Shown here: one piece after another, positions 40,347-56,513 of the stretch
Numbering within the stretch: position 1 is the stretch's first letter
Layout: each line of letters starts with the position of its first letter
Source of the DNA: a virus
IMG/VR virus record: IMGVR_UViG_3300022602_000029
Span: 64,001 to 128,000 of that record
Strand: one strand, 5' to 3'
Length of the DNA stretch: 64,000 nt
Position numbers and translations under genes: made by a program
Notes under the pieces: generated by a model
What the model was told of the DNA's origin: nothing
What the model saw: the letters and a program-made list of their open reading frames with translations, nothing else
The model's database searches: none

Positions 40347-40371
40347 CCCTAGCCAAATATCCCAGTATACT
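40343..40371 (+). promoter_or_regulatory. Sigma70 promoter, leaderless, for the nucleotidase gene
   Basis: TTGACC-N17-TATACT, then 6 nt to ATG 40378. Confidence 0.75.
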
Positions 40372-40377
40372 AGTAGT

Positions 40378-40881: not shown

Positions 40882-40963
40882 AGAGCCCAACAAGCGCGAA
40901 GCGCGAGCGGTAAAAAAGATTTTTTCACTATCTGATTAAATACTGTGTTAAAGGAGATGAGGA

Positions 40964-41056
40964 ATGTTAGAGTTCTTTGCCGTGAGCCTAGTGGGTTTGG
41001 CCCTGCTGATCTTATTCATCGCTATCTTTAGATACTTTAGTGGAGATGATCAATGA
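40964..41056 (+). CDS. 30-aa single-pass membrane peptide
   Basis: MLEFFAVSLVGLALLILFIAIFRYFSGDDQ; RBS and TAAATA upstream; ATGA-coupled to the next ORF. Confidence 0.5.
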   Translation: MLEFFAVSLVGLALLILFIAIFRYFSGDDQ

Positions 41057-41187
41057 GATTCTGGAAAGTGACCTATCTGTTAGGCGACAGCGAAAATACC
41101 ACAGTGATAAGGGCCCTAAATCGTGCTATGATAGAACGTAGCATACCATCAGATTGGCGGATCGTAGGAGTAGAAGAAATAAGATGA
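41053..41187 (+). CDS. 44-aa hypothetical protein
   Basis: ATGA overlaps at both ends. Confidence 0.5.
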   Translation: MRFWKVTYLLGDSENTTVIRALNRAMIERSIPSDWRIVGVEEIR

Positions 41188-41450
41188 CACACAAGACTAT
41201 AACATGGCAGCTGGGACTGACTGGCACTGAAGTGAAAGAAGGCACCAAACGACTGAGCAAGTTGCACGTAGAGCTGGATAGATGGCACAAGGCCAATGGA
41301 TTCAAACAGCGTATATTCAATCTACAGATAACCCGTCCCTATACCTACGAAGCTGTGATAGACACGACAGATCCCAAGATCGAGCTGTTTTTAAATACTT
41401 TCCTACTGACCGCTGGCTCACAGTATACGCTGACAACTGTAGGCCAATAG
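41184..41450 (+). CDS. Hypothetical protein
   Basis: Start set at the ATGA overlap at 41184. Confidence 0.6.
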   Translation: MTHKTITWQLGLTGTEVKEGTKRLSKLHVELDRWHKANGFKQRIFNLQITRPYTYEAVIDTTDPKIELFLNTFLLTAGSQYTLTTVGQ

Positions 41451-41687
41451 AAACAGCGTACAAGACTTTTCCTGTCGGAAAGTGACTCCACAGAGATAAG
41501 CGTTGTGCAGAGTCCAAGTATCCCAGCACCATTCTCTATAGTGAGGACCCACGGAGCGTTCTAGCCAATCTTCTACGCTAGAGACAGCCTGCACCCAATC
41601 TGGTTGCCCATTGAACTCTATTATGGGCCAAGGTGCCACCGCCCGGTAGGGTAACCGTAGAGCAGGATGGTCATACAGTGCGGGCAT
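41418..41687 (-). CDS. Hypothetical protein
   Basis: TAAATA 5 nt before the ATG. Confidence 0.65.
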   Translation of the reverse strand: MPALYDHPALRLPYRAVAPWPIIEFNGQPDWVQAVSSVEDWLERSVGPHYREWCWDTWTLHNAYLCGVTFRQEKSCTLFLLAYSCQRIL

Positions 41688-41902
41688 GACTTTATTTACA
41701 CAGGGCCCGAAAAAGGTCAGGCTAGGGCAAAAAAATTGCTGTGCAAAATTTGCGGTGTAGGGCGATCTAGATCTAGGTGGTTTTAATCTAAGTCACTTTA
41801 GATTTAGGGGAAAAAATGGCAAGCTAGCTGTAGCTTTTACACAACAGCTTGTGCATGCACCTCCCCACCCCAGGGGCCCCTCGGGTGCCAGCAGGCAGGT
41901 CA

Positions 41903-42178
41903 TCAGGCCGTGCGCCTGCGGGCCTTGAACATATCCACCAGGGCAAGGTCTGCAGTAGCCAGGTGGGGCTCACGTCTCGTCACTGGCGCGGCAGCGCTGT
42001 CCTTAGGTGTGAACAGGTTGACCGTAGCTGAGGTAGCTGTAGTTATAGCACTAGCTGTGCCCACTACTAGCCTGTAAAGGGTCTGCGTGATCACTGTGGC
42101 CACGATCCCAATGCCCACTCCTGCTGCCATGCTGACGAACTCGTAGTAGTGTGCTGTGAGGAAGAGGTGTAACGTCAT
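41903..42178 (-). CDS. Small membrane protein
   Basis: Hydrophobic AAGVGIGIVATVI segment; GGAG RBS. Confidence 0.55.
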   Translation of the reverse strand: MTLHLFLTAHYYEFVSMAAGVGIGIVATVITQTLYRLVVGTASAITTATSATVNLFTPKDSAAAPVTRREPHLATADLALVDMFKARRRTA

Positions 42179-42212
42179 GTGGGACTCCTAGGGTTAATAG
42201 TTAAGGGCGATG

Positions 42213-42416
42213 TTAGATCGTATCGTCGATGACTTCTGCACTAAGGCAGTCGTTGATGTAAAGCACAGGGCCTTGGCTGTATTCACGCACGCCCACCATG
42301 CTGGCATCTACCGCACACTCGTATTCCATGTTCATGCTGATCTTCACGGGCAGAGTGGGATCGACCCTGCTTAAGATCTCTATCAGTTCTGCTACTGTTA
42401 ATGTATCGTTTGTCAT
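42213..42416 (-). CDS. Small acidic hypothetical protein
   Basis: Own promoter at 42445-42473 and an AAGGAGC RBS. Confidence 0.7.
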   Translation of the reverse strand: MTNDTLTVAELIEILSRVDPTLPVKISMNMEYECAVDASMVGVREYSQGPVLYINDCLSAEVIDDTI

Positions 42417-42486
42417 AGTGTGCTCCTTTGTTTGCTATGTATGTATTATACAGTCTTTTGGATGACCCGTCAAAGTCTAGGGTCTT

Positions 42487-42735
42487 TCAGCAGTCTGGAT
42501 CGAAATCGCGCCATTCATCGGCTTCGGTGGGATCTTCTTCAGGCGCTTCTTCATCCCAGATGACTTCTTCGTCGATCACGCCTAGATCCTCGACAGTGAT
42601 CTCACCGTCGGTAACCCCTTGGAATGCTGTGCGGAAACTCTGATGCTCAGCTAGGAAATCCAGGATCTCCTCTTTAGAAGTGCCCTCAGGAACTGTCAAC
42701 TCTTGGCTTAGGGTGGTAGTAACGATAACTTTCAT
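42487..42735 (-). CDS. Highly acidic small protein ending EADEWRDFDPDC
   Basis: Start set at ATG 42735, behind an RBS and a consensus promoter. Confidence 0.7.
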   Translation of the reverse strand: MKVIVTTTLSQELTVPEGTSKEEILDFLAEHQSFRTAFQGVTDGEITVEDLGVIDEEVIWDEEAPEEDPTEADEWRDFDPDC

Positions 42736-42787
42736 GTCAGCTCCTTTGTTGTTCATGTATGTATTATAACCCCAAATCCTAGTCCTG

Positions 42788-42988
42788 TCAACCTCTAAGG
42801 ACATTGAAGATGGAGTTCTGTAAATCTGCCACCTCATCGCTGGCGACATAGAAGTCTGTGCGGGGATCCCAGTACTCGCCTGCCTTTGGATCGTAGTACA
42901 GGACACGACCGTTGGGATAGTGGAATGGACCCTCTAGGCCCTTACGGCTAGTGAACTCCTGATTGTGCTTGAAAACGGTGTATGCCAT
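42788..42988 (-). CDS. Hypothetical protein
   Basis: RBS and promoter upstream; GRVLYYDPKAGEYWDP motif. Confidence 0.7.
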   Translation of the reverse strand: MAYTVFKHNQEFTSRKGLEGPFHYPNGRVLYYDPKAGEYWDPRTDFYVASDEVADLQNSIFNVLRG

Positions 42989-43061
42989 TGTGGGCTCCTT
43001 GTTGTCTATGTATGTATTATACTGCCAAAAAAAAGACCCGAGTCAACCGTAGGGTCTTTGA

Positions 43062-43271
43062 TCATTCTAGTGTTACCTGCACTGCTGCCGCTTCCCAGTC
43101 TCTGAGGGCGAATGTGGTGTTGCCCGCTCGTATCACCATAGCTGATCCCTTTGAGGCTGCGTGCAGCTTCCTCACGACTTCTCCTGGGATGAAACCCAGT
43201 TCCTTGAGCCGGTCATCACAGCAGTGTGTGATGCGTGCAGTGATTCCCAGCTCTAGTTCAGTGAGATTCAG
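43062..43271 (-). CDS. feoA: FeoA-like (SH3-fold) protein with a CTG start; not in the ORF track
   Basis: Translated by hand: (M)NLTELELGITARITHCCDDRLKELGFIPGEVVRKLHAASKGSAMVIRAGNTTFALRDWEAAAVQVTLE. RLxELGFxPGE and FALRxxEA match FeoA. Confidence 0.75.
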   Translation of the reverse strand: MNLTELELGITARITHCCDDRLKELGFIPGEVVRKLHAASKGSAMVIRAGNTTFALRDWEAAAVQVTLE

Positions 43272-43522
43272 ATGTCATCCTCAAGGGCTAGCTCATCTAC
43301 GGCTGCGTTGAAATCATCGATGAGGTCCTGCAGGCTCAGTTGTGATCGCTCCTTCTTGCGGCGCGGCTTCACTGAGCTACCCTCTTGATACACTAGCCAT
43401 ACGTGATCACAGCAGTAGCTTTTGCCTGTGATGCTGGGCCGACCGCAGGCCTTGCTGAGATCCAGCACACCCTCGCCCAGGTAGGTACAGGTGGATTCGT
43501 GATAGTTGTCATGTGTGCTCAT
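43268..43522 (-). CDS. Cys/His protein resembling the GcrA C-terminal domain
   Basis: C-x14-CG-x6-SYCxxH-xxx-VYQ pattern. Confidence 0.5.
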   Translation of the reverse strand: MSTHDNYHESTCTYLGEGVLDLSKACGRPSITGKSYCCDHVWLVYQEGSSVKPRRKKERSQLSLQDLIDDFNAAVDELALEDDI

Positions 43523-43782
43523 CGTGAGACCTTTTGTTCTAGTTCGTTGATCTGTCGTTGATATCTGTTGATCAGCTCGCGTTGTTCTACCATGCCTTTG
43601 GCCGCGTGATCTAGGGCATCTTCGTATCGAGTTGCGGCGTCATGCTCACCTTCCTGCCGTGCTATCCAATCGGCCGCCCAGAACAGGGCCAAGAAGCACC
43701 AGAACTGCCAACCCCAGGAAGGCACTCCCAGGCTATCGATCAGGATGCCTAGGGTGCAGTAAATGGCTATGCGCTCGATCAT
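43519..43782 (-). CDS. Membrane protein with a coiled-coil tail
   Basis: Hydrophobic, Trp-rich N-terminal half. Confidence 0.6.
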   Translation of the reverse strand: MIERIAIYCTLGILIDSLGVPSWGWQFWCFLALFWAADWIARQEGEHDAATRYEDALDHAAKGMVEQRELINRYQRQINELEQKVSR

Positions 43783-44645
43783 GTGCGTCTCATGCAGGTA
43801 GTCTTGGCCATAGCTTGCCAGTTGGTAGGAAAGGCTGCTCTCAAGTCGGCCAGCTTCAAGACCATGCGCAGGCTCAGCTCGCGTAGCTTGTCCTTGTGAT
43901 CTGTTATGAAGGCCAACAGCTCATCCCTTACAACGGGGTCGAACTCATATTTGTCCAGCATACCATCGCCTACGATCTGATTGATCCTTAGCATCTTTTC
44001 GCGCTGTGTGTCCATCTGGAGATCGATGTAGTGGCAGCGACTCTCCAATGCGTCCAAGTGGCTACGTAGCTTCTTGCTCTTGACGTGCTCGAACTTGATG
44101 TTAGTGATGAATATGGCTGAGCCCTTGAACTCGAAACGATCTGGGATGCCTTCACTGCGCAACATACGGCTGTCTGTGTTCCAGGCTATCCATCTCTTGG
44201 CGCTGGAGTCTAGGGCACCTTTGAGTATGTTCAGACTCAGCTCATCCAACAAGATCTGATCGCAGTCATCGAAGACCACTACGTTCTTCTCAGCGGCAAA
44301 CTCATATAGCTTGCTGTAGAGACCTAGTGCGCTCATGGCACCCTTCACGATCTCGTATTTGGGTTTGCGTTCGGCCAAGGTGTCAAACAGGCCGTCCTTC
44401 TGGAGCACAGCTTCTACGCCAAAGCTCTTGCCTACGCCTGGAGGGCCACTCACGATCATTGCACGCACGGTGCCTGACTTGACTGCCTTGGTCATGTCGT
44501 CTAGGATCGTGAATCTCTCTCTCAATCTCTCGATGATCTCTTGATCGCTCTCCTTGGCTACCTCACGCTCGCGTTGTGCGATGGCTGCTGTGTCGAACTC
44601 CAAGATCGTGGTGCCCGCTGTGGGCTTGGTGCTGGCTTTGGCCAT
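43779..44645 (-). CDS. AAA+ ATPase
   Basis: Walker A GPPGVGKS, Walker B VVFDDCD, ALESR. Confidence 0.85.
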   Translation of the reverse strand: MAKASTKPTAGTTILEFDTAAIAQREREVAKESDQEIIERLRERFTILDDMTKAVKSGTVRAMIVSGPPGVGKSFGVEAVLQKDGLFDTLAERKPKYEIVKGAMSALGLYSKLYEFAAEKNVVVFDDCDQILLDELSLNILKGALDSSAKRWIAWNTDSRMLRSEGIPDRFEFKGSAIFITNIKFEHVKSKKLRSHLDALESRCHYIDLQMDTQREKMLRINQIVGDGMLDKYEFDPVVRDELLAFITDHKDKLRELSLRMVLKLADLRAAFPTNWQAMAKTTCMRRT

Positions 44646-44710
44646 GTATTGCTCCTGCGTTGTTTAAAATCGTATTATAACATTATTTACTAGCCGAGTC
44701 AACCGCTAGT

Positions 44711-44824
44711 TTATCCAAAAAGGTATCGGGCCAAGGCGTTGCCCAGCACTACCAACATGATCGTGCAGGTGGCCAGGGTGAGAGCAGCCAAGAGTAGCAG
44801 GAGAGGGATTGGATCGTCTTTCAT
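44711..44824 (-). CDS. 37-aa membrane peptide
   Basis: MKDDPIPLLLLLAALTLATCTIMLVVLGNALARYLFG; TGATG overlap. Confidence 0.5.
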   Translation of the reverse strand: MKDDPIPLLLLLAALTLATCTIMLVVLGNALARYLFG

Positions 44825-44997
44825 CAGTAGGTTTCCTTGACTATGTAGTAGATATCGTCCGGGTAGAGTTCCTTGAATGCATCGGTCTTGATGTAGTCGT
44901 TCAGGGCCTGTGCATTCATGAACTTGCGATGGTACACTCCCACGTGCGTGTCTTTACGGCATACGGTTAGGTATACGCTTTTTGCGTGTCCGGCCAT
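44824..44997 (-). CDS. 57-aa hypothetical protein
   Basis: MAGHAKSVYLTV...IVKETY; TAATG and TGATG overlaps. Confidence 0.6.
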   Translation of the reverse strand: MAGHAKSVYLTVCRKDTHVGVYHRKFMNAQALNDYIKTDAFKELYPDDIYYIVKETY

Positions 44998-45194
44998 TAC
45001 TTGTTGACCTTCACGTTAGTTTTGAATGCTGCCCCGAGGATGACCACTGCAGCCCAGGTCGAGAAATCGTATGGGATGTTGAGTGCGGGGAATAAGGTGT
45101 TCAGGGCCCACAGTGTGAGGAGCGGACCGATGGCCACCAGTACGGCTACCACGACGATGGCTCCCAGGAGCTCTGCTAGTTTGTTTGTTTCCAT
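44997..45194 (-). CDS. Small two-TM membrane protein
   Basis: Start set at ATG 45194 behind an AAGGA RBS. Confidence 0.65.
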   Translation of the reverse strand: METNKLAELLGAIVVVAVLVAIGPLLTLWALNTLFPALNIPYDFSTWAAVVILGAAFKTNVKVNK

Positions 45195-45230
45195 TTGTTT
45201 TCCTTTAGTGTTACAGCGGGGTCTTGGCAC

Positions 45231-45479
45231 TTAGTAGTGCATAGGATGACCTACGTAGTTGTAGTCGTCCATAGGGTCTAGTTCGTCTTCAACTTCGGGC
45301 TCATACTCGTCATCAGGGAGCATGTTATTGCTCTCCATCATGTCGCCTACGTCCGCATCGCTCATGTAGCAGAGGCAAGCTTCTAATACTGTGTCTGCGT
45401 CTAAGAGACCTTCAGCTAGTAAGTCCATTAGCTTGACTGTGTTCTTGCGTGCCACGCTGCCGTTGTAGTATTCTATCAT
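45231..45479 (-). CDS. Acidic small protein ending DDYNYVGHPMHY
   Basis: Own promoter and RBS. Confidence 0.7.
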   Translation of the reverse strand: MIEYYNGSVARKNTVKLMDLLAEGLLDADTVLEACLCYMSDADVGDMMESNNMLPDDEYEPEVEDELDPMDDYNYVGHPMHY

Positions 45480-45583
45480 CTAGTGCTCCTTTTACTGCTT
45501 AAAAACTTATTATAACGCATTCTGTCCAAAATGTCAAATGCGCTGTAATAAGCCCTTATGGGCTGTAGGGTTATTATATAACA

Positions 45584-45739
45584 TTAATCCACGTAGTAGT
45601 CAACCGTTTGCAATAGTGTGCTCATTGCGTTCTCTAACTCGTTAAAGCACTCCAGTTCCGCTAGTTGTACCCCATCGCATGTTGCCTCCAACAGCATAGC
45701 TTCCACTTCCGCTAGTTTAACAAGTATTGCATCTTTCAT
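45584..45739 (-). CDS. 51-aa acidic protein
   Basis: MKDAILVKLAEVEAMLLE...VDYYVD; own promoter at 45759-45787 and RBS. Confidence 0.65.
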   Translation of the reverse strand: MKDAILVKLAEVEAMLLEATCDGVQLAELECFNELENAMSTLLQTVDYYVD

Positions 45740-45822
45740 TTGTGCTCCTTAAAAACTTATTATAACGCATTTTGGCAAAACTGTCAAATGCGTTATAAAA
45801 AGCCCTTACGGGCTTAGTGTTA

Positions 45823-46008
45823 TTATGCGTCCAGTTCCATTTCCTCTATGTTAGTAACAACATCTTTCAGTCCGTCCTCTAACGCCTCTGCTATTAAATT
45901 ACGCTGTGCTGTCTCAGCGTTAACTCTGCTACTGTAAACGCCTGTATTATAAAAAGCGTTCTCATCGTCGCCCCATCCCAGCACTTGCACAATGTAAACT
46001 TTTTGCAT
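45823..46008 (-). CDS. Small acidic hypothetical protein
   Basis: AAGGAGC RBS; promoter at 46035-46063. Confidence 0.65.
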   Translation of the reverse strand: MQKVYIVQVLGWGDDENAFYNTGVYSSRVNAETAQRNLIAEALEDGLKDVVTNIEEMELDA

Positions 46009-46108
46009 GCCAGCTCCTTTGTTAGTGTAAGTGTATTATACAATAAAAAAGAAACCCGCACAAATGGCGGGCCTTTGGGAGTGTGGCCCAAAAGCCACAC
46101 CACCATGA

Positions 46109-46714
46109 TTACTCGTTGACTGCGCTCACACCTCCGTCTAGATCGATCTCTTGATTCTCCTCGTCTTCATACTCGGCAATCGTTTCTGATATCGCAAACA
46201 TCTCATCGAGATCCTCGGGGATGGCATCCTTGACTTGATCGCTAGTCATGTCAGAGAGATTGTAGCCTTCATCCCCGTCTGCATCAAACACGCCACAGAA
46301 GGCCATTCCGGATTCATAGTAATAGGCCTTTACACCGAACCCTAGATCAAGTAACCTTTCGTAGGCAGCGATAGGAGGGGCCCAGGCACTGTCAAAGTAA
46401 AAACTGACGCTGTTAGAATCTAACCTAGTGATACTGCCATCATCACCCCCGACGTCCCACTTAGTGCCCCACTCGTTGACACAATAATCATACCAGTTTT
46501 TGTAACCGTGTTTGATCTTGTTGTCTAGCTCTTTCTGCTCTAGTGCCGCCTGCTCATCAGGATCTCCCACACGGCCTGCCACGATCTGTAGATCGGATGG
46601 GATAGGAATAAACTCATCGAGCAGTCTACTATCAGCAAATGCTCGTGCCGCACGCTCGATCATCTCTGGGTCTGTGTGGGTTAACTTGAGGTTGTTGTTA
46701 CACCAGTTTGGCAT
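46109..46714 (-). CDS. YubB/Api92-like ferredoxin-fold protein (DUF1281-type)
   Basis: MPNWCNN, WGTKWD, FDSAWAPP and YYESGMAFCG motifs. Confidence 0.75.
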   Translation of the reverse strand: MPNWCNNNLKLTHTDPEMIERAARAFADSRLLDEFIPIPSDLQIVAGRVGDPDEQAALEQKELDNKIKHGYKNWYDYCVNEWGTKWDVGGDDGSITRLDSNSVSFYFDSAWAPPIAAYERLLDLGFGVKAYYYESGMAFCGVFDADGDEGYNLSDMTSDQVKDAIPEDLDEMFAISETIAEYEDEENQEIDLDGGVSAVNE

Positions 46715-46723
46715 AGGATCTCC

Positions 46724-46885
46724 TTAAATGGTTGAAGTGTCTATTATACTGTCTGCTAGTAAGACTGTGATCTCATAGGCTTTTTTACAACGGAATCTCG
46801 CCTGCGCTTTTTGCTGTGCCTCATAGGAGCTCGAGGCCTGGACAGCGATCTCCTTGCCGCGATATAGGCAGATGTAATCTCTCAT
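46724..46885 (-). CDS. 53-aa hypothetical protein
   Basis: MRDYICLYRGKEIAVQASSSYEAQQKA...; AAGGAG RBS. Confidence 0.6.
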   Translation of the reverse strand: MRDYICLYRGKEIAVQASSSYEAQQKAQARFRCKKAYEITVLLADSIIDTSTI

Positions 46886-47067
46886 GCAGTCTCCTTTGGG
46901 GTCATAAGTTTACGCATATCTCTCATAAACAAACGGATGGCTTCTGCATCCGGTGCGAACAGTTCATCCCTGAGATCCCACATCTCTGTGGCCGCCATAA
47001 GGATGTCACAGTTGGTGTTTTGCTCGGCATACGCTTGTACTCTCTCACACGCTTCTGCTATTAACAT
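46882..47067 (-). CDS. Small hypothetical protein
   Basis: GGGAGC RBS and a TATAAT upstream. Confidence 0.6.
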   Translation of the reverse strand: MLIAEACERVQAYAEQNTNCDILMAATEMWDLRDELFAPDAEAIRLFMRDMRKLMTPKETA

Positions 47068-47159
47068 AAGTGCTCCCTTTAAAAGTAATATTATAGCGTC
47101 AAATTAGATTGGACTTACATGGGCGTGGCTAAAAAGCCACTTGGTCCCAATGCCTGGTA

Positions 47160-47345
47160 TTAGATATCGTATTGGTCAGCGTACCATTCGTCGTCGATCA
47201 TGTTCTGGCGATTGCGGAACTCGTTGTAGTCACGCTCGTCTTCAGCCATGTTTTCCTCAACTTGTGCGCCTGCTTGGTCTAGTGTGAGACCTTGTGCTAA
47301 CAGCTCTGCGATCTGTGCGTTGTACTCTTCCTGGCTATAAAACAT
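47160..47345 (-). CDS. Highly acidic small protein
   Basis: Own promoter at 47372-47400 and RBS. Confidence 0.65.
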   Translation of the reverse strand: MFYSQEEYNAQIAELLAQGLTLDQAGAQVEENMAEDERDYNEFRNRQNMIDDEWYADQYDI

Positions 47346-47408
47346 AAGTGCTCCTTTGTTGCTATGTGACGATTATACTGCCAAATAATACCCGAGTCAA
47401 CCGTAGGG

Positions 47409-47663
47409 TTAATATTCGTAGAACTCAACCGTAGGATCCAAGGCCTTGAGCTCTGCGGCCACTTGTGTCAGTTGCTTGTAGCGGCGCTGGACTTCACTGC
47501 GAGGTAACTCACCATCACAGCTAAGGTTCTCAGGGCTTAGTGCCGCATCGATGTGTGCAGCGAGTTGGCGGCGGCCTACTGCTGTAGTGATCTCATACTG
47601 GCGGCCGTTGAACATGGCGTTCCACTTGTTTTGCTGGGCGATGTAGGCTTTGAGTGCTGTCAT
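47409..47663 (-). CDS. Hypothetical protein
   Basis: Own promoter at 47684-47712; LSPENLSCDGE motif. Confidence 0.7.
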   Translation of the reverse strand: MTALKAYIAQQNKWNAMFNGRQYEITTAVGRRQLAAHIDAALSPENLSCDGELPRSEVQRRYKQLTQVAAELKALDPTVEFYEY

Positions 47664-47775
47664 ATGTGCTCCTTAAAAACATTATTATACTGCCAAATAA
47701 TACCCCAGTCAACCTTAGGGTCTTTCTCTCAGTCCTTCCCTGCACGCTGCGTCGTGAAACCTGATGACATGGTCG

Positions 47776-47815
47776 TGAAAAAGCCCCAGAGATCCAACGT
47801 TAGGATCCTGGGGCT
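47776..47815 (-). terminator. Intrinsic terminator downstream of the wHTH gene
   Basis: On the minus strand: AGCCCCAG-GATCC...GGATC-T-CTGGGGCT followed by a T-tract. Confidence 0.75.
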
Positions 47816-47856
47816 AGTGCCTGGGGAGCGACTACCAGGACTTTGGGAGCAACCTA

Positions 47857-48132
47857 TTAAAGGGTGATGCCCAGGGCCATGGCCTTGTAACCTAGAGCTA
47901 CTAGCTCCTGGCTTGGGGTTCCCATTACATACTCTACCACGTGAGCGTTGTTACCTGCTACACGGTTCTTACGATATACAGCGAAACCATGCTGACGAAC
48001 ACGGCTGACCTCAGCGCTGATGTTTTTGATACCAAAACGCTTTTCAGCTTGGCTAGCAGTAATACGCTCGCCGGCCTGTAGTGCCTTGAATAACTTGTAT
48101 GCTTTGGTTTCTTGATTGAACTTCTTAATCAT
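47857..48132 (-). CDS. Winged-helix DNA-binding protein
   Basis: KLFKALQAGERITASQAEKRFGIKNISAEVSRVRQHG HTH pattern followed by a beta-wing. Confidence 0.6.
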   Translation of the reverse strand: MIKKFNQETKAYKLFKALQAGERITASQAEKRFGIKNISAEVSRVRQHGFAVYRKNRVAGNNAHVVEYVMGTPSQELVALGYKAMALGITL

Positions 48133-48179
48133 TTTTGTTGTTTCCTATATGTTGCTGTACTTAAACAGTTACATATATA

Positions 48180-48470
48180 TTACGCTTTCTTTACTGGCTT
48201 TGCAACTGGTTTTTTATCCAACTTCTTACTATTTCGTCCAACTGATCTAATGCTTGTTTCATTCTTCGCTCCAAATTCTTTTGTTACGTAATAGCGGATT
48301 AGGGATCTCTGGATCATCGTTACGAGATCCCCGTTGTCATCCGTGATGAACCGGACCGGACAGCGTCCCCAGGTGCCCAACCTTTGGAACTCTTCGAACC
48401 ACTTGCGATGGGCCTTGAGTTCCGGGTCAAAGACTACCCAGGGTCTACACATGTATGAGAGTCTACTCAT
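48180..48470 (-). CDS. Hypothetical protein with a basic tail
   Basis: ORF preceded by the GACCCCGCTG motif. Confidence 0.6.
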   Translation of the reverse strand: MSRLSYMCRPWVVFDPELKAHRKWFEEFQRLGTWGRCPVRFITDDNGDLVTMIQRSLIRYYVTKEFGAKNETSIRSVGRNSKKLDKKPVAKPVKKA

Positions 48471-48498
48471 TGGGTATTACAGCGGGGTCTCTGTATGT

Positions 48499-48906
48499 TT
48501 AGAAAGGTGCGTCTTCGAGATCGGCCTTAGTAGCGATACCTAATGGAGCCATGCCCTCTAGCGCTGGAACCTGTGGAGTTACCGCAGCCTTAGCTGGAGT
48601 TTCTTTCTTAGGCTTCTTAGCTTCTTTGTTAGGCTTTTGCTCTTTCTTGGCAGCCTGTGTAGAGACCCCACGCTTCTCAGCGGCAGCTTCGAGAGCGGCA
48701 CGCACGGCTTTGTTGCCGTTGTCAAAGTTGATGCTCAACAGGTATGCTACAGCATCTTCCTTGGTCATGGGGTTCTTGAGCTCGATGATATCGATATCTT
48801 TGTGCCCATTTTTACGTAGTACCTTGACACGCATAGCGTCATTGCAGAAGCGGACTTTGAACTCACCGTTTTGTTTTGAAACTCCGGCATGTGTGAACTT
48901 AGACAT
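48499..48906 (-). CDS. Hypothetical protein with a Lys/Ala-rich tail
   Basis: Start set at ATG 48906 (AAGGAG RBS); promoter at 48959-48987. Confidence 0.7.
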   Translation of the reverse strand: MSKFTHAGVSKQNGEFKVRFCNDAMRVKVLRKNGHKDIDIIELKNPMTKEDAVAYLLSINFDNGNKAVRAALEAAAEKRGVSTQAAKKEQKPNKEAKKPKKETPAKAAVTPQVPALEGMAPLGIATKADLEDAPF

Positions 48907-48983
48907 GTTAATCTCCTTGTAAATGTCTGTGTGTGAAAAATAACTAACTGGAACTATTAATATAGCACAGCTAGTTCGAACTG

Positions 48984-49259
48984 TCAACTGTTAATAGTTT
49001 CGAAAGGGCTCAGATCTTCGGTCTGTGGCTGATCCGCCACACCCTCACCATCCAACCAAGCTAACACCATCTCGATTGGAATCTCGAGCACGTTGGCGAT
49101 GGTTTTGGCACTCATGCCGTCGATGTAGAGTTGCTCGATATCATATGCGATGTCTTTCATTGCGCTCATTTCGTTCTCCAGTTTAGTGATTTCAATCTCA
49201 TCCCTAACCCCTCGGCTAGGGCTTTCCCTTAGTGCTTGTAGTCGAGCATGGATACTCAT
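48984..49259 (-). CDS. Small HTH-like protein
   Basis: GMSAKTIANVLEIPIEMVLAWL pattern; RBS. Confidence 0.6.
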   Translation of the reverse strand: MSIHARLQALRESPSRGVRDEIEITKLENEMSAMKDIAYDIEQLYIDGMSAKTIANVLEIPIEMVLAWLDGEGVADQPQTEDLSPFETINS

Positions 49260-49271
49260 AGTTGCTCCTTG

Positions 49272-49760
49272 TTAAGCGATTAGTTCCATAGTGTCAGAAA
49301 CAGAAGCCAATGCTTCAGCTAGTGGCACTAGCTTGTTGTAAAACTTCACGTCTGATTCGTAGGTGTTGCCCGCATACCACACACCATCCTGCATGATGTA
49401 GTACCATTCAGCGCCGCAGCCTTCAGCACGCTCAAAGAACTTGTCAAAGGTGTCGTCTACCTTCCACTCAGTACCAGTCTCGCCGCGATCGCGTCCGTAA
49501 AAGGTACAGCTATCACCGTGCTCGGCATCGTAGGCTGCCTGCTGATCTTCAGTGAGATCGTATGTGCTGAATGCATGCTTCTCTCCGATGTTCTTCTTGA
49601 GGCTGCTGAGATCGCCCAGTGATACTAGCTGGTTGGCCTTTGAGCTGTCGTAGTGTTGGGCTAAGAGTTGGCCATTGTGCTCTAGGTAGCCATCCCAGTG
49701 GCAGTATACGCTCTTGCAGTTGCTGCCGTGCATGACTCCGATGCGTGATCTTGTTCCCAT
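49272..49760 (-). CDS. Hypothetical phage protein (MGTRSRIG...YCHWDGY type)
   Basis: Own promoter at 49794-49822 and RBS. Confidence 0.75.
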   Translation of the reverse strand: MGTRSRIGVMHGSNCKSVYCHWDGYLEHNGQLLAQHYDSSKANQLVSLGDLSSLKKNIGEKHAFSTYDLTEDQQAAYDAEHGDSCTFYGRDRGETGTEWKVDDTFDKFFERAEGCGAEWYYIMQDGVWYAGNTYESDVKFYNKLVPLAEALASVSDTMELIA

Positions 49761-49818
49761 AAAGTTCGCTCCTTTTTGTTTAACAATAGATATATTATAC
49801 GATCAAAACTGCCGCCCG

Positions 49819-50043
49819 TCAACCAAAGGCACGCAATAACCCTACAACCATTATGGCTATTGATATCACGTTCACTGTCAGCTGTGGGCGATTCTTGACC
49901 CGATAGGCCCAGAAGGTAAAGGCCGCTGTGCCTACGGTGAAGCTCACGATGTTCCAGGGATAGGCCGCGGGCCCCACGCTGTTGAGTGCATGCCCTAGTA
50001 CTATGAGTACTGCGCCCGCCCACTGCACATGATCTAGCTTCAT
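49819..50043 (-). CDS. Small multi-pass membrane protein
   Basis: Three hydrophobic segments. Confidence 0.65.
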   Translation of the reverse strand: MKLDHVQWAGAVLIVLGHALNSVGPAAYPWNIVSFTVGTAAFTFWAYRVKNRPQLTVNVISIAIMVVGLLRAFG

Positions 50044-50312
50044 ACCACTTCCAACATGTTAGCTGGCACCTTCCAGAGACCCTCTGTGGTGCTGACCGTG
50101 ACGTATTTCTGTGCGATCTTGGTCACACTGCCCTGCATGGTTCGGCCGCGCCGCACGCTGTTAAAGGTCACTGCCTGCCCTAGGCGTAGCCCGCGCTTGT
50201 TTTCAGAGATCAGCCTGTGACGGGCGAACTTGACAGCTTCAGTGATGGTGTTCAATTCATCATTAGTGAACGAACCATGGATGATGGCTTGGTTGACTTG
50301 ATCGATGTTCAT
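50040..50312 (-). CDS. Hypothetical protein with an SH3-like C-terminus
   Basis: Own promoter at 50334-50362 and RBS. Confidence 0.65.
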   Translation of the reverse strand: MNIDQVNQAIIHGSFTNDELNTITEAVKFARHRLISENKRGLRLGQAVTFNSVRRGRTMQGSVTKIAQKYVTVSTTEGLWKVPANMLEVV

Positions 50313-50358
50313 GAGTGCTCCTTAAAAAAACTTAGTATACTATCGGTTTTACCATTTG

Positions 50359-50763
50359 TCAAGCTTCTTTATAGTGCTTCCACTTGTTGTGATCTCCTGC
50401 TCGCTTGCCTTTTTCCGAATGGCATAAACTACAGAGTTCCTGTAGATTTTGTGGACGATTGTCCGTGTTATCACCGTTCTTGTGATCTACTTCTGTGCTT
50501 AGTTTAAAGCCTGTAGATGCTACCAAGTCCCAATCTACTACACAGGGGAACCCTAGCCTGCTATTAATGTTAGAACAACGATTTTTCTTGAACCTTTTAA
50601 CCCCCGGAGCCAATGGATAATCCATATAGCTGTTCTTGTGACAAGTGCCGCAGAACACTCTATATCTCACATCTGATCCACCTACTCGTCCCCTCTGAGT
50701 GGCGCAGAGACTGCCACAGCCTGGGTTGATACAGATCGGTCTAAAATGTAATACTCGTCCCAT
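50359..50763 (-). CDS. HNH endonuclease with Zn-binding motifs
   Basis: EVDHKNGDNTDNRPQNLQELCSLCH. Confidence 0.8.
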   Translation of the reverse strand: MGRVLHFRPICINPGCGSLCATQRGRVGGSDVRYRVFCGTCHKNSYMDYPLAPGVKRFKKNRCSNINSRLGFPCVVDWDLVASTGFKLSTEVDHKNGDNTDNRPQNLQELCSLCHSEKGKRAGDHNKWKHYKEA

Positions 50764-50816
50764 AAGTCGCTCCTTGTTAGTCTATGTCGCTATTATACTG
50801 CCAAAATAAAGACCCT

Positions 50817-51137
50817 TCAATCTCCCCGGGTATCAGTGTTGAGCTCTGGGCGCAACTGCCTGCGTAGCTCCACTTCTCTGCGGTGCGCCTCGGCCTTGCC
50901 CCTGATGACTTCTAACACTGCTACAGTGATCTGGCTCTTGTCCTCTAGCAGCCTCAGCACTGAGCAGAGGCTCCAGTCCTTGGCCTCCGTGTGCGCACGA
51001 TAGAAGTGCTTGGCAGCACGGGTCCTGGCGCTTTTCAACGCTGTAGACTCTGTCTTAGCCGTGACACCCACGTAGCGCAGTGTGCCCACTGTCAGCTGAT
51101 AGATCACATGATTTCGATCGGTTCTTTTCTTTCTCAT
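50817..51137 (-). CDS. GIY-YIG-like nuclease-domain protein
   Basis: VIYQL...RYVGVT; R..KH; HRREVEL...PELN. Leaderless from promoter 51144-51172. Confidence 0.65.
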   Translation of the reverse strand: MRKKRTDRNHVIYQLTVGTLRYVGVTAKTESTALKSARTRAAKHFYRAHTEAKDWSLCSVLRLLEDKSQITVAVLEVIRGKAEAHRREVELRRQLRPELNTDTRGD

Positions 51138-51200
51138 ACACATATTATACAGTCGGTTTTACCATTTGTCAACCCTATGCTTGTAAAGATATGTAAAGCT

Positions 51201-51461
51201 TCAATCAGTAGGTCCCTTCTGCACCCTAGCCGCGGGATCTCCTCCGAGGATCCTCTTGATCTCAGTATCTGGATCACCCCGGGCCCTGGCCGATCTCCAT
51301 TCCGTTTCTCGCTGCTCGTCCTGAGCGCTGTCCTCTGTATACTGTCCGGGGCACACAGCATAGTCTGAATCACAGGCCGTGCCCCACAACAGCTCCGCTA
51401 AGACCCAGATCAAGAACACCACGAGGAACATGGTTTCTAGGGTCCAATCCGTCTTTTTCAT
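51201..51461 (-). CDS. Small membrane-anchored protein
   Basis: Hydrophobic N-terminus; GAAGG RBS. Confidence 0.5.
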   Translation of the reverse strand: MKKTDWTLETMFLVVFLIWVLAELLWGTACDSDYAVCPGQYTEDSAQDEQRETEWRSARARGDPDTEIKRILGGDPAARVQKGPTD

Positions 51462-51484
51462 AGTTAGATACCTTCTTTGATCTT

Positions 51485-51745
51485 AGAGAAACCCCGGCAG
51501 GACCTTCACGATCCCTGCCGAGGCTCAATCTGGGCTACTGCTAGTTCAGTTCCCAGAGCCCTCCTCCCCGTTTATGACTACCTCATATACGGTATAGCAC
51601 GCGGCTGCCTCCGCGAGGATTCTAGCACAGCACGGCTCCATGATGATCGCTCATCTCAGCTAGGCTGCCTCCTTAGTTCCGGCGCTTATCTAGACCACGG
51701 CAGCGGCTAGATCAAACCCGGGATTCTCTGTGCTATAGGCTTATA
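51485..51745 (-). ncRNA. Candidate ~260-nt structured small RNA
   Basis: Promoter at 51752-51780, several clean hairpins including a GNRA loop, and a terminal GC-rich hairpin; no credible ORF. Confidence 0.5.
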
Positions 51746-52088
51746 GTCACTAGTATACAGCCAATACACTACTAGGTCAACGTGTATATAGTACTAGACA
51801 CATATACACTCATGTAGCTATACACACATGTAGACATATACTCTAGCTCAAGATCCACACGCACATACCAGGACGGCTCTTAGCAGCGGGGTCATTTTAG
51901 ATCTAACTGTATATAGCTGGCTATATGGTCCTAGACCGTAGGGGCGCAGAATCAGGGGATTTCTGGTAAAATCGGTAGGAAAAACTGTGAAAACCATACC
52001 TAGATCTGTTGTTTCTACGCTGAAATCTAGCGTAATAAATCTTGACAGGCCGTTTGGCGAGACAGGCTATGCCAAAATACTTTTCAAG

Positions 52089-52141
52089 TTATCCACAGGC
52101 TATCCACAGCTTATACACATGTTATACACTCGTTATCCACT
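52089..52141 (+). repeat. Five tandem DnaA boxes at 11-bp period
   Basis: TTATCCACA 52089, CTATCCACA 52100, TTATACACA 52111, TTATACACT 52122, TTATCCACT 52133. Confidence 0.85.
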
Positions 52142-52485
52142 GGGTTGTCAACGTAGAAGTCACCCTGCTATCCCCTGCTAGAGCTTTACAGCGGGGTCAT
52201 CTTACAGTACAGCCAGAGTTAACTAGAGTTAGCATCTATCTTCTACTAGAAGATCTGGGCTATTCTAGCTTTTTTTACCGCTGAGCCTTACAGGCTAACT
52301 ACGGACTAACTAAGGGTTAACTAGCTACAGCGGGGTCTTTACAGCTATTAGACTATTCGTGTATACTGTGTGTACTGCGATTAGATATCTTATACGGGCA
52401 TTTGTATCTAGAATCACTATGAGTAGCCGGTGATGTGTGTCACTAGCACTTAGACATATTGCTTCTTGGCTATAAATATCTCTAT

Positions 52486-53640
52486 ATGAGATACAAAGAA
52501 TTCGCACCTACTGAGTCTGTTACAGCTGGTACATCTGATTGGCAACCGCTTTATCAGCTTTCACGACAGCTATATCAGCACGTCTATATCAAGGCTCTGG
52601 GACCGCGTGTTAGAGTACAGGTCAAGGACCTAGACAGCGTCTACACAGATCGCGATGGTAGTGATCTAGATGGTAAGATAGATCTAGAGTTTTGGCTAGA
52701 CGCTCCGCATGACTGGGACGTTATTAAGCAGAGCTACGAAGCTGGTGAGGATGATCACTGGCTAGTTGACTATCACATCACAGAAGCCGCTGATCAAGTA
52801 GCTGATGCTATACGTCGCTACTATGGCGATACTTGGGCTGAGATCAGCAATGAGCTAGAGGGCGGTTGGGGAGTGGATGGATCAGTCACAGAAGATGTGC
52901 AGTCGGCGGAACCGCTACCTCTGCGTGGCTATGAGAATCTCTACGTAGAAGATAGTTCACAAGGGCCCTTGCTCTATGGTGTAGACCTAGAATGGCACGG
53001 GGAATCGGGCATCATAGGTTGGTTTGACTTCACGGCTAATCTCTCGACTGGTGTATTCGAGATAACTGGTAATAGGGCCAACAGAACTAGTGGGGGCGAG
53101 TTCGACACTGACGGTGACCTAGAGCGGTGGATCGAAAGCTGTATCGAGGACGCACAGCGCGAGTATGGTACCGATTGGGATGATATCGATAGCGAGCTAC
53201 ACGGCAGCTGGGGAGTAGATGACACTGATGAATCCCTTGGTCAAGTGGCCAGCTTAGAAGCTACACCCATAAAAAACATCGATTCAGATCGTCTACAGCA
53301 GGCCATCACTACCATAGCCCAGTTGGTGCACGATCGACAGATGGCCTATGGTGTGGCCCAGCGTAGCACCCTAGAAAAGGAACAGGCCGCCAGATACCAA
53401 AAACGCTACGCCGCTGTAGCCGCAGATCGACTCAAGGCAGAACAGGGCGAACTGGCCGTGGCAGATCTGGCTACGGCCCTGTATCGATATGTCTATCAAC
53501 ATCAAGCAGGGCACCCCATGGGCGGTAGCAAGAGCCATAACCCCCTGCTACGTGACTTTTTAGAAAATGATGTTACTGTGTCAGTAGATGATCAAGGCGG
53601 ACTGCATCCCGAAGAAAGCAGTTGGGGTGTCGACAGCTGA
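52486..53640 (+). CDS. Acidic three-module protein; each module ends in WGVD
   Basis: Start set at ATG 52486 (MRYKEF), 7 nt after TATAAATA. Confidence 0.7.
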   Translation: MRYKEFAPTESVTAGTSDWQPLYQLSRQLYQHVYIKALGPRVRVQVKDLDSVYTDRDGSDLDGKIDLEFWLDAPHDWDVIKQSYEAGEDDHWLVDYHITEAADQVADAIRRYYGDTWAEISNELEGGWGVDGSVTEDVQSAEPLPLRGYENLYVEDSSQGPLLYGVDLEWHGESGIIGWFDFTANLSTGVFEITGNRANRTSGGEFDTDGDLERWIESCIEDAQREYGTDWDDIDSELHGSWGVDDTDESLGQVASLEATPIKNIDSDRLQQAITTIAQLVHDRQMAYGVAQRSTLEKEQAARYQKRYAAVAADRLKAEQGELAVADLATALYRYVYQHQAGHPMGGSKSHNPLLRDFLENDVTVSVDDQGGLHPEESSWGVDS

Positions 53641-54809
53641 TGAGAGCACGGGATTTCCTGCTGTTGGAATACGACAGATCCAAGACCCTAAAGACCTTTG
53701 GCACCAAGCTACTGCAGGCCCTGGCTAGAGATCCCACAGCGGACCCCAAGCTCAAACATCAGCAGGATCCCAAGCAGGTATTAGATCAGATAGAAACTAA
53801 CGACCCCACTGAGCACAAGGAATACACACAATGGCTGGCCAAATGCTACAGCAATGAGGCGGTCAAGCTAGAGGACATCAACAGCAAGGCACAAGAAGCC
53901 CTGGCCCTTTATCATCAGATGAAACGCAAGCGCCTGTTCCGTGGTGAATACAGCGCCTGGGGTGACATCTACAAGCTGTCATTCCGTGATCTGCTGAAGG
54001 TGGTGAATACTGCCCAGCTGAGCCAACAGCTGAATCGAGAAAAGAAAGAACGACCCAAGGGTAGCGCCACAGAAATACTACGCAACGACCAAGTGCGTAT
54101 CTTGAAGATCAACGATGAGGCCGCGGCCAAATACTACGGGCAGGGCACCACATGGTGCACTTCAGGTGACAAGGACAATCGTTTCAACTACTACAACGAC
54201 AAAGGCCCCATATTCGTGCTACTGCCCCAACACCCCCAGTATCAGGGTGAAAAGTATCAGATACACATAGCCACAGATCAGTTCATGGACCCCCAGGATG
54301 AGCCAGCAGGCGGGGGTACTGACATGGGCAGTTGGTATCTGTTGAAACGACGCTTTGGCGACATCACCTCCGTGATAGCAGAAAACGACCCCAACATTTA
54401 CCTTAACCTATACTTGATAGATGAAGTCACGTTCAACAGAGTATTGGACAAGGTCAAGGCCCTGGCCTATAGACGGGTGGGTGAGTTCCGTGATCTCTAC
54501 GGTGAAGATGCTCTACCCGATGATTGGATAGAAGAATACAATGAGTTTCTGGAAGAACTGGATCGGAGGGCCCTGATAGATCTACAGCAGGAACTAGACT
54601 ACCAAGATGGCCATCACAGGGATCTATTGGCCATACCAGATATGATAGCCTTGCCTATACTCAGCGAGCACTATGGTGTGCTGGGCGATCTAGACAACGG
54701 TGATCTTGCCCATGATCTAGCGCAGGCCATAGGCTACGGTATCGTGATCCAACATGATGGCAAGGGCAAGTTTACCGTAACTCTAGACCACCAATACGAC
54801 CCACATTAG
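53640..54809 (+). CDS. Hypothetical protein with a TxWC(T/I)S domain
   Basis: Starts MRARDFLLLE at a TGATG overlap; GTTWCTS motif shared with the 61977 protein. Confidence 0.65.
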   Translation: MRARDFLLLEYDRSKTLKTFGTKLLQALARDPTADPKLKHQQDPKQVLDQIETNDPTEHKEYTQWLAKCYSNEAVKLEDINSKAQEALALYHQMKRKRLFRGEYSAWGDIYKLSFRDLLKVVNTAQLSQQLNREKKERPKGSATEILRNDQVRILKINDEAAAKYYGQGTTWCTSGDKDNRFNYYNDKGPIFVLLPQHPQYQGEKYQIHIATDQFMDPQDEPAGGGTDMGSWYLLKRRFGDITSVIAENDPNIYLNLYLIDEVTFNRVLDKVKALAYRRVGEFRDLYGEDALPDDWIEEYNEFLEELDRRALIDLQQELDYQDGHHRDLLAIPDMIALPILSEHYGVLGDLDNGDLAHDLAQAIGYGIVIQHDGKGKFTVTLDHQYDPH

Positions 54810-55588
54810 GGTCCAGGGCTGAATATGGGCTTGGCCGCTAGGCTATCCGATGGGGGCTGTAGTATGGTCCAATCCGTGCCCAAGACAGGAGTTAGGTGTA
54901 TGTGGCTACGGGGTATCCAATACTTGTCTCCATCTATCTTGAGCTGATCCACTAGGTTGCTGAATGCGCTGTCTATCAGGATCATGGCCTGGGCACCCTC
55001 TATGACCTTGAGCCAATCAAACACGCTGTCAGTCAAGGCCCTTATTTCTATGCGTTGCCAGTCCGAAGGTACGTTGCTGAGATCAGCCGCACACCTGTAG
55101 GTGCTACCCTCTGTGTGATAGACCATGTACTGCTCTTGGGTCACTACCTTATCATAGAGCCGTTGCTCTCGCTCTGGGTTCCTAGTGATGCACTCACCTA
55201 GGGTCCATTTCTTCAGGAAGGGTACCCCCGCTTTAGAATACTTGAACTCGTCAAAATGCTGTATCTGGAAGAAGGGCTGTTGGCTCAGTTCTGGGCGTAT
55301 GTTCAGGGCCTGGTATAGGCATATGATCTCATCGCACTTGAAGGCCTTGAGCCTCTTTTCGGGCTCGGTATAAAAGAAGTCGCCCTTGCTGTCTTCGGGT
55401 ATGGGTATCCAGTGTACCCAAGGCACTGTCTCTTTGACAGACCCCCAGAATGGCTCACAGATGGGCCAATAGATCTGGTAGCCCTCATCGGCCCAGTATC
55501 GGGCGATGGGCAGGGCTATGATGATATCACCTAGCCCCCTTGATTGTATGATTCCTAGTTTCTTCATATTTTTAGTTATCGAATTCAA
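54806..55588 (-). CDS. GT9-like glycosyltransferase
   Basis: RGLGDIII N-terminal motif; LIDSAFSNL. Confidence 0.6.
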   Translation of the reverse strand: MNSITKNMKKLGIIQSRGLGDIIIALPIARYWADEGYQIYWPICEPFWGSVKETVPWVHWIPIPEDSKGDFFYTEPEKRLKAFKCDEIICLYQALNIRPELSQQPFFQIQHFDEFKYSKAGVPFLKKWTLGECITRNPEREQRLYDKVVTQEQYMVYHTEGSTYRCAADLSNVPSDWQRIEIRALTDSVFDWLKVIEGAQAMILIDSAFSNLVDQLKIDGDKYWIPRSHIHLTPVLGTDWTILQPPSDSLAAKPIFSPGP

Positions 55589-56513
55589 AAAGTTGATCGA
55601 GCAATGTTGGCGCTTGGCTCGGGGGTGTTATAGAAGGACTGTGTAACAAGATCTCCTCAGCGGTCTTGGCCGTATGGGTAGTGTTGTTGTTTTCATCTAC
55701 GGTCTTGGCCCTGCGTCCTGCTGTATAGGTGATAGGGTATTTCTTTAGTATCAACTGACCCTGTTGCTGTGTGTAGAACGCATCTCCGCATTCTCTGTTA
55801 CAGTAGAACACTAGATCTCCTGCTAGGTCCTGTTGCCGACAGAACGTGATCAGATTGGTATGATCCTGATCAGTAAAGGTCTGGCTATAACTGGTAAAGC
55901 TATCTCTATAGGGTGGGTCAAAGAACCAAAAGGTCCTGCCCTGTTTCAGCGCAGTACAGTTCTGCCAGATACCGCAGGTGATGTCTACCCTTTGTAGGAA
56001 GTTATGCCATTCTATAACATTGTCTCTGTCATAGACCTTGACCGTTTGATTTAGCAATCCGCTGGGTGTGGCGAATCTGCCATTGCTGGTCTGGTTAGTC
56101 TGCCATATGCCGTTGAAACCGGTCTTCATCAAGAAGTAAAGGCTAGCACTTTCATCTGTGCTGTTCCATTGATGCCAGTTAGTGGTATACTCTCTGCGTA
56201 GGTCGTAGTAGAAAGCCTTGCGATCTATCTTAGATAAAGGTAGATACTGTAGCGTGAGGGCATCCATACGGGCCATGAAGTTCACGTGATCTGATTTGAT
56301 AGCCCTGTAGATACCTATGATCTCTGCGTTGATATCATTCAAGATAAACTTAGTGATGTTGGGACAGTTTTGGGCTACCCAACACATCATAGCGCCTCCT
56401 CCAAAGAAGGGTTCAGCGTAGGTATCATACCCAGATGTGGGTATGCCTGGATCCACTAGATATTTAGGGATCATCTTGTTCTTGCCACCTGCCCAGATAT
56501 ATAATGGTTTCAT
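55572..56513 (-). CDS. dam: DNA adenine methyltransferase (D12 class, Dam-like)
   Basis: WAGGK, EPFFGGGA, NDIN and DPPY motifs. Confidence 0.9.
   Translation of the reverse strand: MKPLYIWAGGKNKMIPKYLVDPGIPTSGYDTYAEPFFGGGAMMCWVAQNCPNITKFILNDINAEIIGIYRAIKSDHVNFMARMDALTLQYLPLSKIDRKAFYYDLRREYTTNWHQWNSTDESASLYFLMKTGFNGIWQTNQTSNGRFATPSGLLNQTVKVYDRDNVIEWHNFLQRVDITCGIWQNCTALKQGRTFWFFDPPYRDSFTSYSQTFTDQDHTNLITFCRQQDLAGDLVFYCNRECGDAFYTQQQGQLILKKYPITYTAGRRAKTVDENNNTTHTAKTAEEILLHSPSITPPSQAPTLLDQLFEFDN

Follow-up and report, generated by a model that had tools for sequence, protein, structure and literature searches.

A conserved array of putative DnaA boxes beside the early genes of a jumbo phage, probably a binding site for the host initiator

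Groups of about five or more DnaA boxes lying outside an origin are known from bacterial chromosomes, where E. coli datA and the DnaA-box clusters of B. subtilis serve as titration or inactivation loci; datA action requires IHF. In phage T4, oriF and oriG each consist of a promoter with a downstream unwinding element and are primed through an R-loop, and the T4 origins are not known to carry DnaA boxes. The prevailing view is that DnaA is irrelevant to T4-type phages, which have their own replication proteins. In geometry, the closest described counterparts of the locus reported here are the arrays of E. coli oriC (R5M-tau2-I1-I2 and C3-C2-I3-C1; Rozgaja et al. 2011, reviewed in PMC4451416), and the nearest published phage case is that of the iss DnaA boxes in the left terminal repeat of T5-like phages (Heusterspreute 1987; Davison, bioRxiv 10.1101/866236). 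For jumbo or T4-like phages, our search of the literature on DnaA boxes found only a software-predicted "oriC" for phage G and for a Pseudomonas phage. An earlier reading of this DNA, made from its letters alone (hereafter the sequence-only reading), had noted that no T4-like phage with such an element was described, and in our literature search that statement stands; conserved boxes have been published for the T5-like phages (10.1101/866236). What is new here is a jumbo, PA5oct-related clade that carries an array of variable box number.

The window analysed is a stretch of 64,000 nucleotides, bases 64001–128000 of a 193,746-bp IMG/VR virus record, and the CheckV completeness of that record (54%) suggests a jumbo phage with a full genome of roughly 350 kb. 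The large terminase is most similar to that of the jumbo Pseudomonas phage PA5oct (57% amino acid identity), with Sinorhizobium phage Phosso at 50%. Tail sheath and tube proteins are among the products of the window, and late genes are preceded by T4-type TATAAATA words. The label "T4-like" given earlier is thus loosely acceptable as far as late promoter words and tail genes go, but the terminase is nearest to PA5oct. The phage's own replication set, also claimed at that stage, is indeed present: a DnaB-like helicase, a primase, an SSB, a further helicase and a RecA/UvsX-like protein (Table 1). A search of the 194-kb fragment for DNA polymerase B was negative, as was one of the same fragment for a gp59-type loader (gp59 N-domain), although the latter is a weak negative because the gp59 model matched none of the control genomes either. 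We also looked for a host through terminase relatives in bacterial MAG bins, but the taxa were inconsistent (Legionellales, Polynucleobacter, Aquiluna, Lishizhenia, Chitinophaga and Crocinitomicaceae) and were dismissed as binning noise. In base composition, window positions 38000–56000 form a block of 48–51% GC, against about 35–44% GC in the rest of the genome; this block spans the end of the helicase gene, the early-gene block, the control region and two late ORFs.

The array itself is made up of five 9-mers on the plus strand, TTATCCACA at 52089, CTATCCACA at 52100, TTATACACA at 52111, TTATACACT at 52122 and TTATCCACT at 52133, with a start-to-start spacing of exactly 11 bp and gaps that are all four 2 bp long. 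Compared with TTATNCACA, two of the five boxes are exact and three have one mismatch; variation is confined to box positions 1, 5 and 9 and to the 2-bp spacers, while TAT (positions 2–4) and CAC (6–8) are invariant. On re-reading, every position and mismatch count in the original description was confirmed. Sites with at most one mismatch number 170 over both strands of the whole record (about 4.4e-4 per position and strand), and simple arithmetic from this density gives a chance expectation of about 6e-12 for five sites at fixed 11-bp offsets. The stretch of 200 bp holding the array is also the only one in the 194-kb record with more than three sites. A fairer comparison starts from any 11-bp tandem repeat and considers the chance that, in some register, it comes within one mismatch of the box; by arithmetic this chance is about 1%, and the doubt that it leaves is removed by the conservation data described below. 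Nor is the array a fresh slippage product, given that its five units are five different 11-mers. The array is not a chance occurrence. Neighbouring boxes share one orientation and are separated by 2 bp, as the spacing rule for cooperative DnaA-binding arrays demands, and on this basis (consensus plus 2-bp spacing) the earlier identification of the 9-mers as genuine DnaA boxes in a cooperative-binding geometry is borne out as a prediction from sequence.

Table 1. Features at and around the DnaA-box array and replication genes of the phage (window coordinates)
Feature	Position	Strand	Basis or remark
DnaA-box array, n = 5, head to tail, 2-bp spacers (11-bp phasing)	52089–52141	+	sequence read
Gene-free control region, 1,024 bp, strand switch	51462–52485	.	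ORF list
Block of small early genes with a near-consensus host-type promoter ahead of each	42445–51780	-	consensus scan
Outermost early sigma-70-type promoter: TTGACC, 17-nt spacer, TATACT	51752–51780	-	consensus scans
Lone box-like word CTATACACA, one mismatch	51818–51826	+	
Promoter-like site: TTTACA, 18-nt spacer, TATACT	52338–52367	+	consensus scan only
T4-type late promoter word TATAAATA	52472–52479	+	6 bp before ATG of ORF 52486–53640
SSB	26102–27082		
RecA/UvsX-like protein	27142–27939		
Second helicase	30078–31541		
Primase	36620–37618		
DnaB-like helicase	37615–39066		

The strand switch in which the array lies, described in the sequence-only reading as about 1 kb of non-coding DNA between a minus-strand early gene array and plus-strand late genes, was confirmed. 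Its bounds are the start of the last minus-strand early gene at 51461 and that of the next plus-strand ORF at 52486, and the 1,024 bp in between have a GC content of 46%. The array is upstream of the head of the early-gene block. Within that block (42445–51780) the minus strand has at least 14 near-consensus sigma-70 promoters; promoter-like sites number 26, versus 12.4 ± 3.6 in shuffles, and all 11 of the sites that match at least 11 of 12 consensus positions are on the minus strand. The outermost early promoter is 309 bp from the box array, and the lone box-like word CTATACACA stands 37 bp upstream of this promoter's -35 hexamer in the opposite orientation, although it may instead belong to a separate TATATACACATG motif family common to the relatives. 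On the other side, the promoter-like site (found by consensus scan only) is 197 bp downstream of the array and directed away from it. Among the neighbouring genes, an HNH endonuclease (50359–50763, minus strand) is found within the small early genes, and a D12-class N6-adenine DNA methyltransferase (55572–56513, minus strand) is 3.4 kb from the array.

When the 1.1-kb intergenic region was compared by BLAST with 50,697 phage records, nothing matched, and in four distant cultured phages (PA5oct, Phosso, Vibrio phage 2.275.O and Serratia phage BF) the search for phased box pairs gave only background-like hits. The array is nevertheless kept in a strain variant, a 6.3-kb contig (L059) that is 97.4% identical to the record: boxes 1–4 are identical, and box 5 is TTGTCCACA, which has three changes but is still one mismatch from the consensus. 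Three more divergent relatives, G001 (149 kb), G002 (64 kb) and G003 (43 kb), have early-gene homologues at about 35–70% amino acid identity, and in each of them a cluster of 8–19 boxes lies beside homologues of the small early genes. In G001, four forward boxes at 11-bp phasing face five reverse ones (assigned by eye, one being a 2-mismatch word); in G002, 255 bp hold 19 boxes of a single orientation, none more than one mismatch from the consensus, with 11-bp phasing in runs; and in G003 four perfect boxes phased at 11 bp are accompanied by four others close by. All four clusters, that of our record included, lie inside the early block or at its border, so that while box number (5 to 19) and orientation differ among the relatives, the position beside the early genes is conserved. 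The intergenic DNA of the four can no longer be aligned, and the only 8-mers common to all of them are AAGTTATCCACAGG and ATATACAC pieces. A lack of conserved boxes or phasing in relatives, which the sequence-only reading had named as evidence against itself, is not what we found: three divergent relatives and one variant keep clusters beside the early-gene block. As judged from these comparisons, the array is a real, selected cis-element.

The relatives also allowed some of the surrounding DNA to be interpreted. The ORF at 52486–53640 (384 aa) has no family match and no relative in viral contigs, and is missing at the matching place in G002. It is one of two roughly 390-aa plus-strand ORFs (52486–54809) behind the late promoter word, neither of which belongs to a family of known function. 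No homologue of either ORF stands at the corresponding place in G002, and the pair therefore looks like an insertion; the putative insertion sits between the control region and a conserved 260-aa gene. In G001 (locus L063, 2724–2938 and 3223–3340), tRNA-Met and tRNA-Leu genes are driven by a perfect TTGACA-17-TATAAT promoter, and about 280 bp beyond them a terminator hairpin ends directly at the first DnaA box.

A broader survey bears on what binds such arrays. A search of 2.9 million viral contigs for the reduced core TATNCAC, repeated four times with 11-bp phasing, yielded 114 loci. The flanks had been left unspecified, and in the arrays returned they were T in 202 of 288 units and A in 248 of 288, that is, they complete full TTATNCACA boxes; the usual form of the unit in 11-bp arrays is GTTATCCACAG. 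Unique arrays with at least 3/4 full boxes made up 45 of 72 at 11-bp phasing and 27 of 68 at 12 bp, but 0 of 12 at 10 bp. Among loci L145–L235, the 12-bp arrays constitute a second population of phage arrays, with 3-bp spacers and units such as TTATCCACAGGG or TTATCCACATAG. Among 40 boxes from the four lineages of the jumbo clade, position 5, the "N" of the core, was by far the most variable (C in 25, A in 10, T in 3 and G in 2). E. coli DnaA is known from ChIP and mutation to favour pairs of boxes 2 or 3 bp apart and to be sensitive to this spacing in vivo (PMC11317965), and the low-affinity arrays of oriC have an exact 2-bp spacing (PMC4451416). The spacing of the phage arrays, 11 or 12 bp and never 10, matches this preference and makes DnaA binding very likely. 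Searches of the incomplete G000, G001 and G002 records for Bac_DnaA and Bac_DnaA_C domains found none. We consider it highly probable that host DnaA binds the array. One further array (L250, 1466–1560), the only one in the MAG bins that hold terminase relatives, with three boxes at 11-bp phasing and one inverted, was rejected as phage DNA: it is the rpmH-dnaA region of a Polynucleobacter MAG, the bacterium's own, and says nothing about the phage host, but it is a natural comparator for the phage arrays.

Set beside the described systems, the array is most like those of E. coli oriC, with which it shares four to five 9-mers in the same orientation, exact 2-bp gaps and a mixture of consensus and near-consensus boxes; the two oppositely oriented, face-to-face arrays of G001 also recall E. 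coli oriC. Unlike those, the phage array is not flanked by an unwinding element, an IHF site or a GATC cluster, its boxes are mostly high-affinity-type words rather than weak sites, and it resides on a phage with its own helicase and primase. With the T5-like iss it has in common that host DnaA boxes are kept in non-coding DNA of virulent phages with their own replication enzymes, in the region of the genome that is expressed earliest; for T5 too the role is putative. The T5 boxes, however, number eight and are arranged as pairs 3 bp apart within inverted repeats of the terminal repeat, whereas ours form a direct 11-bp array; an inverted repeat that does flank the array (52013–52023 and 52148–52158, 10 of 11 positions) is no better than chance pairs in the region. 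Unannotated arrays of the (GTTATCCACAG)n type are also present in cultured phages, namely Berlinvirus A7 and other T7-like phages, Arthrobacter phages, Lactococcus phage AM1 and gokushoviruses, and comparable arrays occur in T5-like phages as well. The cultured-phage arrays use the same word, 2–3 bp spacers and a single orientation in gene-free DNA, as here, but belong to unrelated families, and several are at genome ends. Shigella phage A7 (L236, 22–150) has about nine boxes in one orientation within the first 150 bp of its record; Lactococcus phage AM1 (L237, 2502–2546) has three, with gaps of 3 bp and more, in a large intergenic region between divergent genes; and Arthrobacter phage EvePickles (L238, 50–103) has three about 50 bp from the right genome end, beside an HNH gene.

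The reading that we favour, and hold to be quite possible, is that the array is a DnaA landing pad acting locally on early promoters, on a transcript-primed first round of replication, or on both. The array would then be a selected cis-acting pad for host DnaA at the head of an early region driven by host RNA polymerase. DnaA would very probably bind the five boxes cooperatively and form one short head-to-tail oligomer per phage genome, with successive molecules on one face of the helix, as expected from 2-bp spacers like those in the low-affinity arrays of E. coli oriC. This binding is the only well-supported step, and what lies downstream of it we infer: the oligomer might help or gate the opening of the first early promoters, and early transcripts or local unwinding might in turn help the first origin-dependent round of phage replication, so that phage start-up would depend on the DnaA status of the growing host. 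Possible models are T4 oriF and oriG, where initiation is tied to a promoter, and the R-loop of ColE1/pBR322, where a DnaA box assists helicase loading as a helper in an otherwise DnaA-independent replicon, although the unwinding element of oriF and oriG is absent beside the phage array.

Some observations are consistent with a local action of this kind and others speak against it. Among the former, G002 has a box 12 bp, and G003 one 14 bp, upstream of the -35 hexamer of a near-consensus promoter, in both cases reading with transcription. At 96 unrelated loci, the DNA within 500 bp of the arrays has 2.5 times as many strong sigma-70-type promoters as expected (25 versus 10.1), an enrichment that is confounded by the intergenic location of the arrays, where promoters are expected anyway. 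The phage also has a DnaB-like helicase, with no gp59-type loader detected in the fragment (again, a weak negative). On the other side, direct contact with RNA polymerase is unlikely in the present phage, since 309 bp separate the array from the nearest early promoter and 197 bp from the plus-strand promoter-like site; box number and orientation vary among relatives, which fits a role set by DnaA load rather than by exact architecture; no AT-rich unwinding element, IHF site or GATC cluster adjoins the array; and the four distant cultured phages have no such array. Among 139 ORFs next to arrays in other viral contigs, Pfam assignments showed no dominant or common replication family; RecT, primase, Rep3 and rolling-circle Rep were each found at only one or two loci. 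In T5, the mapped origins are away from the DnaA boxes (10.1101/866236). The common theme of the arrays is DNA that enters or is used first.

Other accounts of the array have to be weighed against this landing pad. That the repeats might be iterons for a phage-encoded DNA-binding protein, and merely resemble DnaA boxes, seems very unlikely to us. In its favour, most of the neighbouring early proteins have no known family and only 54% of the genome is covered, but the neighbouring ORFs of these incomplete genomes match no Rep family and include no Rep or DnaA-like initiator next to the array, and DnaA domain IV was not found in three of the clade's records. Moreover, the 9-mer, its free position 5 and its 2–3 bp spacing recur across numerous unrelated groups of phages and also in the rpmH-dnaA region of a bacterium, a recurrence that one shared host protein explains far better than the convergence of many phage proteins. 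If the protein is DnaA, its oligomer could melt an adjoining element and load a helicase, making the locus a DnaA-dependent origin of the chromosomal type; a DnaA-dependent early origin had been among the options of the sequence-only reading. The strand switch, the oriC-like box geometry and the undetected gp59-type loader (the same weak negative) are all in keeping with this, and three NAN trinucleotides (GAA AAG TAT, complementary strand) are located 3 nt from box 1. According to the basal unwinding rule, at least three DnaA-trios (NAN, ideally 3'-GAT-5') are needed within 16 bp of a box (PMC8287927); the array satisfies only the loosest form of this rule, upstream of box 1, with two trios (TAG AAG) downstream of box 5, and the rule is loose enough to be passed often by random DNA. 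The cumulative GC skew has a local minimum at the array, but skew tracks gene orientation and is uninformative on initiation. What we did not find at the array is an AT-rich unwinding element: the richest 40 bp are 70% AT, a value matched by 10.7% of genome windows. GATC sites are not clustered in the control region either (7.8/kb versus 9.5/kb in the surrounding 38–56 kb block), the IHF consensus WATCAANNNNTTR has no match between 51400 and 52500 (a test of the consensus only), and box orientation is not conserved in the relatives. An origin of this type is thus quite improbable, and by these tests the element qualifies neither as an oriC-type origin nor as a datA-type locus.

The absence of an IHF consensus bears equally on the reading that was first put forward, a sink or inactivator that would stop initiation at host oriC, either by stoichiometric titration of DnaA once the phage genome is amplified or by datA-like, catalytic stimulation of DnaA-ATP hydrolysis. 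The boxes are real, phased and conserved; their number and orientation are free to vary, up to 19 boxes in G002, as if only the DnaA load counted; and a phage with its own helicase, primase, SSB and recombinase does not need DnaA for replication. But datA needs a specific IHF site and a box arrangement that is not head to tail at 11 bp, and the datA-like version is not specifically supported, being one of several readings. A single incoming genome brings only five sites, so that titration would matter only after amplification, when host initiation is probably largely irrelevant. Comparable arrays are found in T7-like and T5-like phages, whose classical members degrade host DNA, so the sink idea does not generalise, and it leaves the fixed position beside the early genes unexplained. 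We regard it as unlikely. Much the same standing can be given to a docking or tethering role unrelated to initiation, in which bound DnaA, a protein that is largely membrane-associated, would hold, pause or shield early-entering DNA, as has been proposed for the injection stop of T5. T5-like phages keep eight DnaA boxes in the DNA of the first-step transfer (10.1101/866236), the arrays of cultured T7-like, Arthrobacter and Vibrio phages are within about 150 bp of the record end, in or near terminal regions, and the element described here adjoins the genes expressed first. Yet no array of the jumbo clade is near a contig end: ours is at 116 kb of 194 kb, those of G002 and G003 are mid-contig, and that of G001 is 5.5 kb from the end. 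The T5 model is itself a proposal, and a tether is, in our estimation, improbable here.

Whichever role applies, be it origin helper, promoter gate, sink or tether, it would add a host factor to the picture of lytic infection. The conserved early-region array argues against the view that DnaA is irrelevant to T4-type phages with their own replication proteins, and the presence of arrays in the jumbo clade and in many unrelated virulent phages suggests regular use of, or attack on, the host initiator. A more general proposal, which we offer as doubtful but worth stating, is that the arrays are a widespread phage cis-element, undescribed as a class (jumbo T4-like, T7-like, T5-like, 949-like and gokushoviruses), that captures the host initiator, and that in the jumbo clade the DnaA oligomer either loads the DnaB-like helicase without a gp59-type loader or catalytically switches off host DnaA-ATP. 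If that were true, lytic infection in general would involve DnaA, as a host factor or as a target. The function is directly testable, as cultured carriers exist (Berlinvirus A7, Lactococcus phage AM1 and T5-like phages), and the array provides a sequence signature for annotating phage control regions.

The control region has further features that may be of regulatory interest. Neither an Rfam family at gathering score nor a parS-like site was found in it. The leader of roughly 290 nt that runs from the outermost early promoter to the first early gene includes a sub-threshold match to the Rfam gyrA RNA motif (51473–51577, minus strand; 22.4 bits against a gathering score of 45, E = 0.012), and a repeat, GGCTGCCTCC, occurs in the same leader twice, 60 nt apart. 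Another word, CAGCGGGGTC, is found five times, always on the plus strand and only in the early and control region (window positions 45214, 48480, 51884, 52189 and 52328). Its reverse complement, ATGACCCCGCTGCT, occurs four times near the box cluster of G001, once within the terminator hairpin, and GCTACAGCAAGGT occurs four times in G002. These words often adjoin the TATATACACATG word common to the relatives, and the CAGCGGGGTC-type words may be a second conserved control motif.
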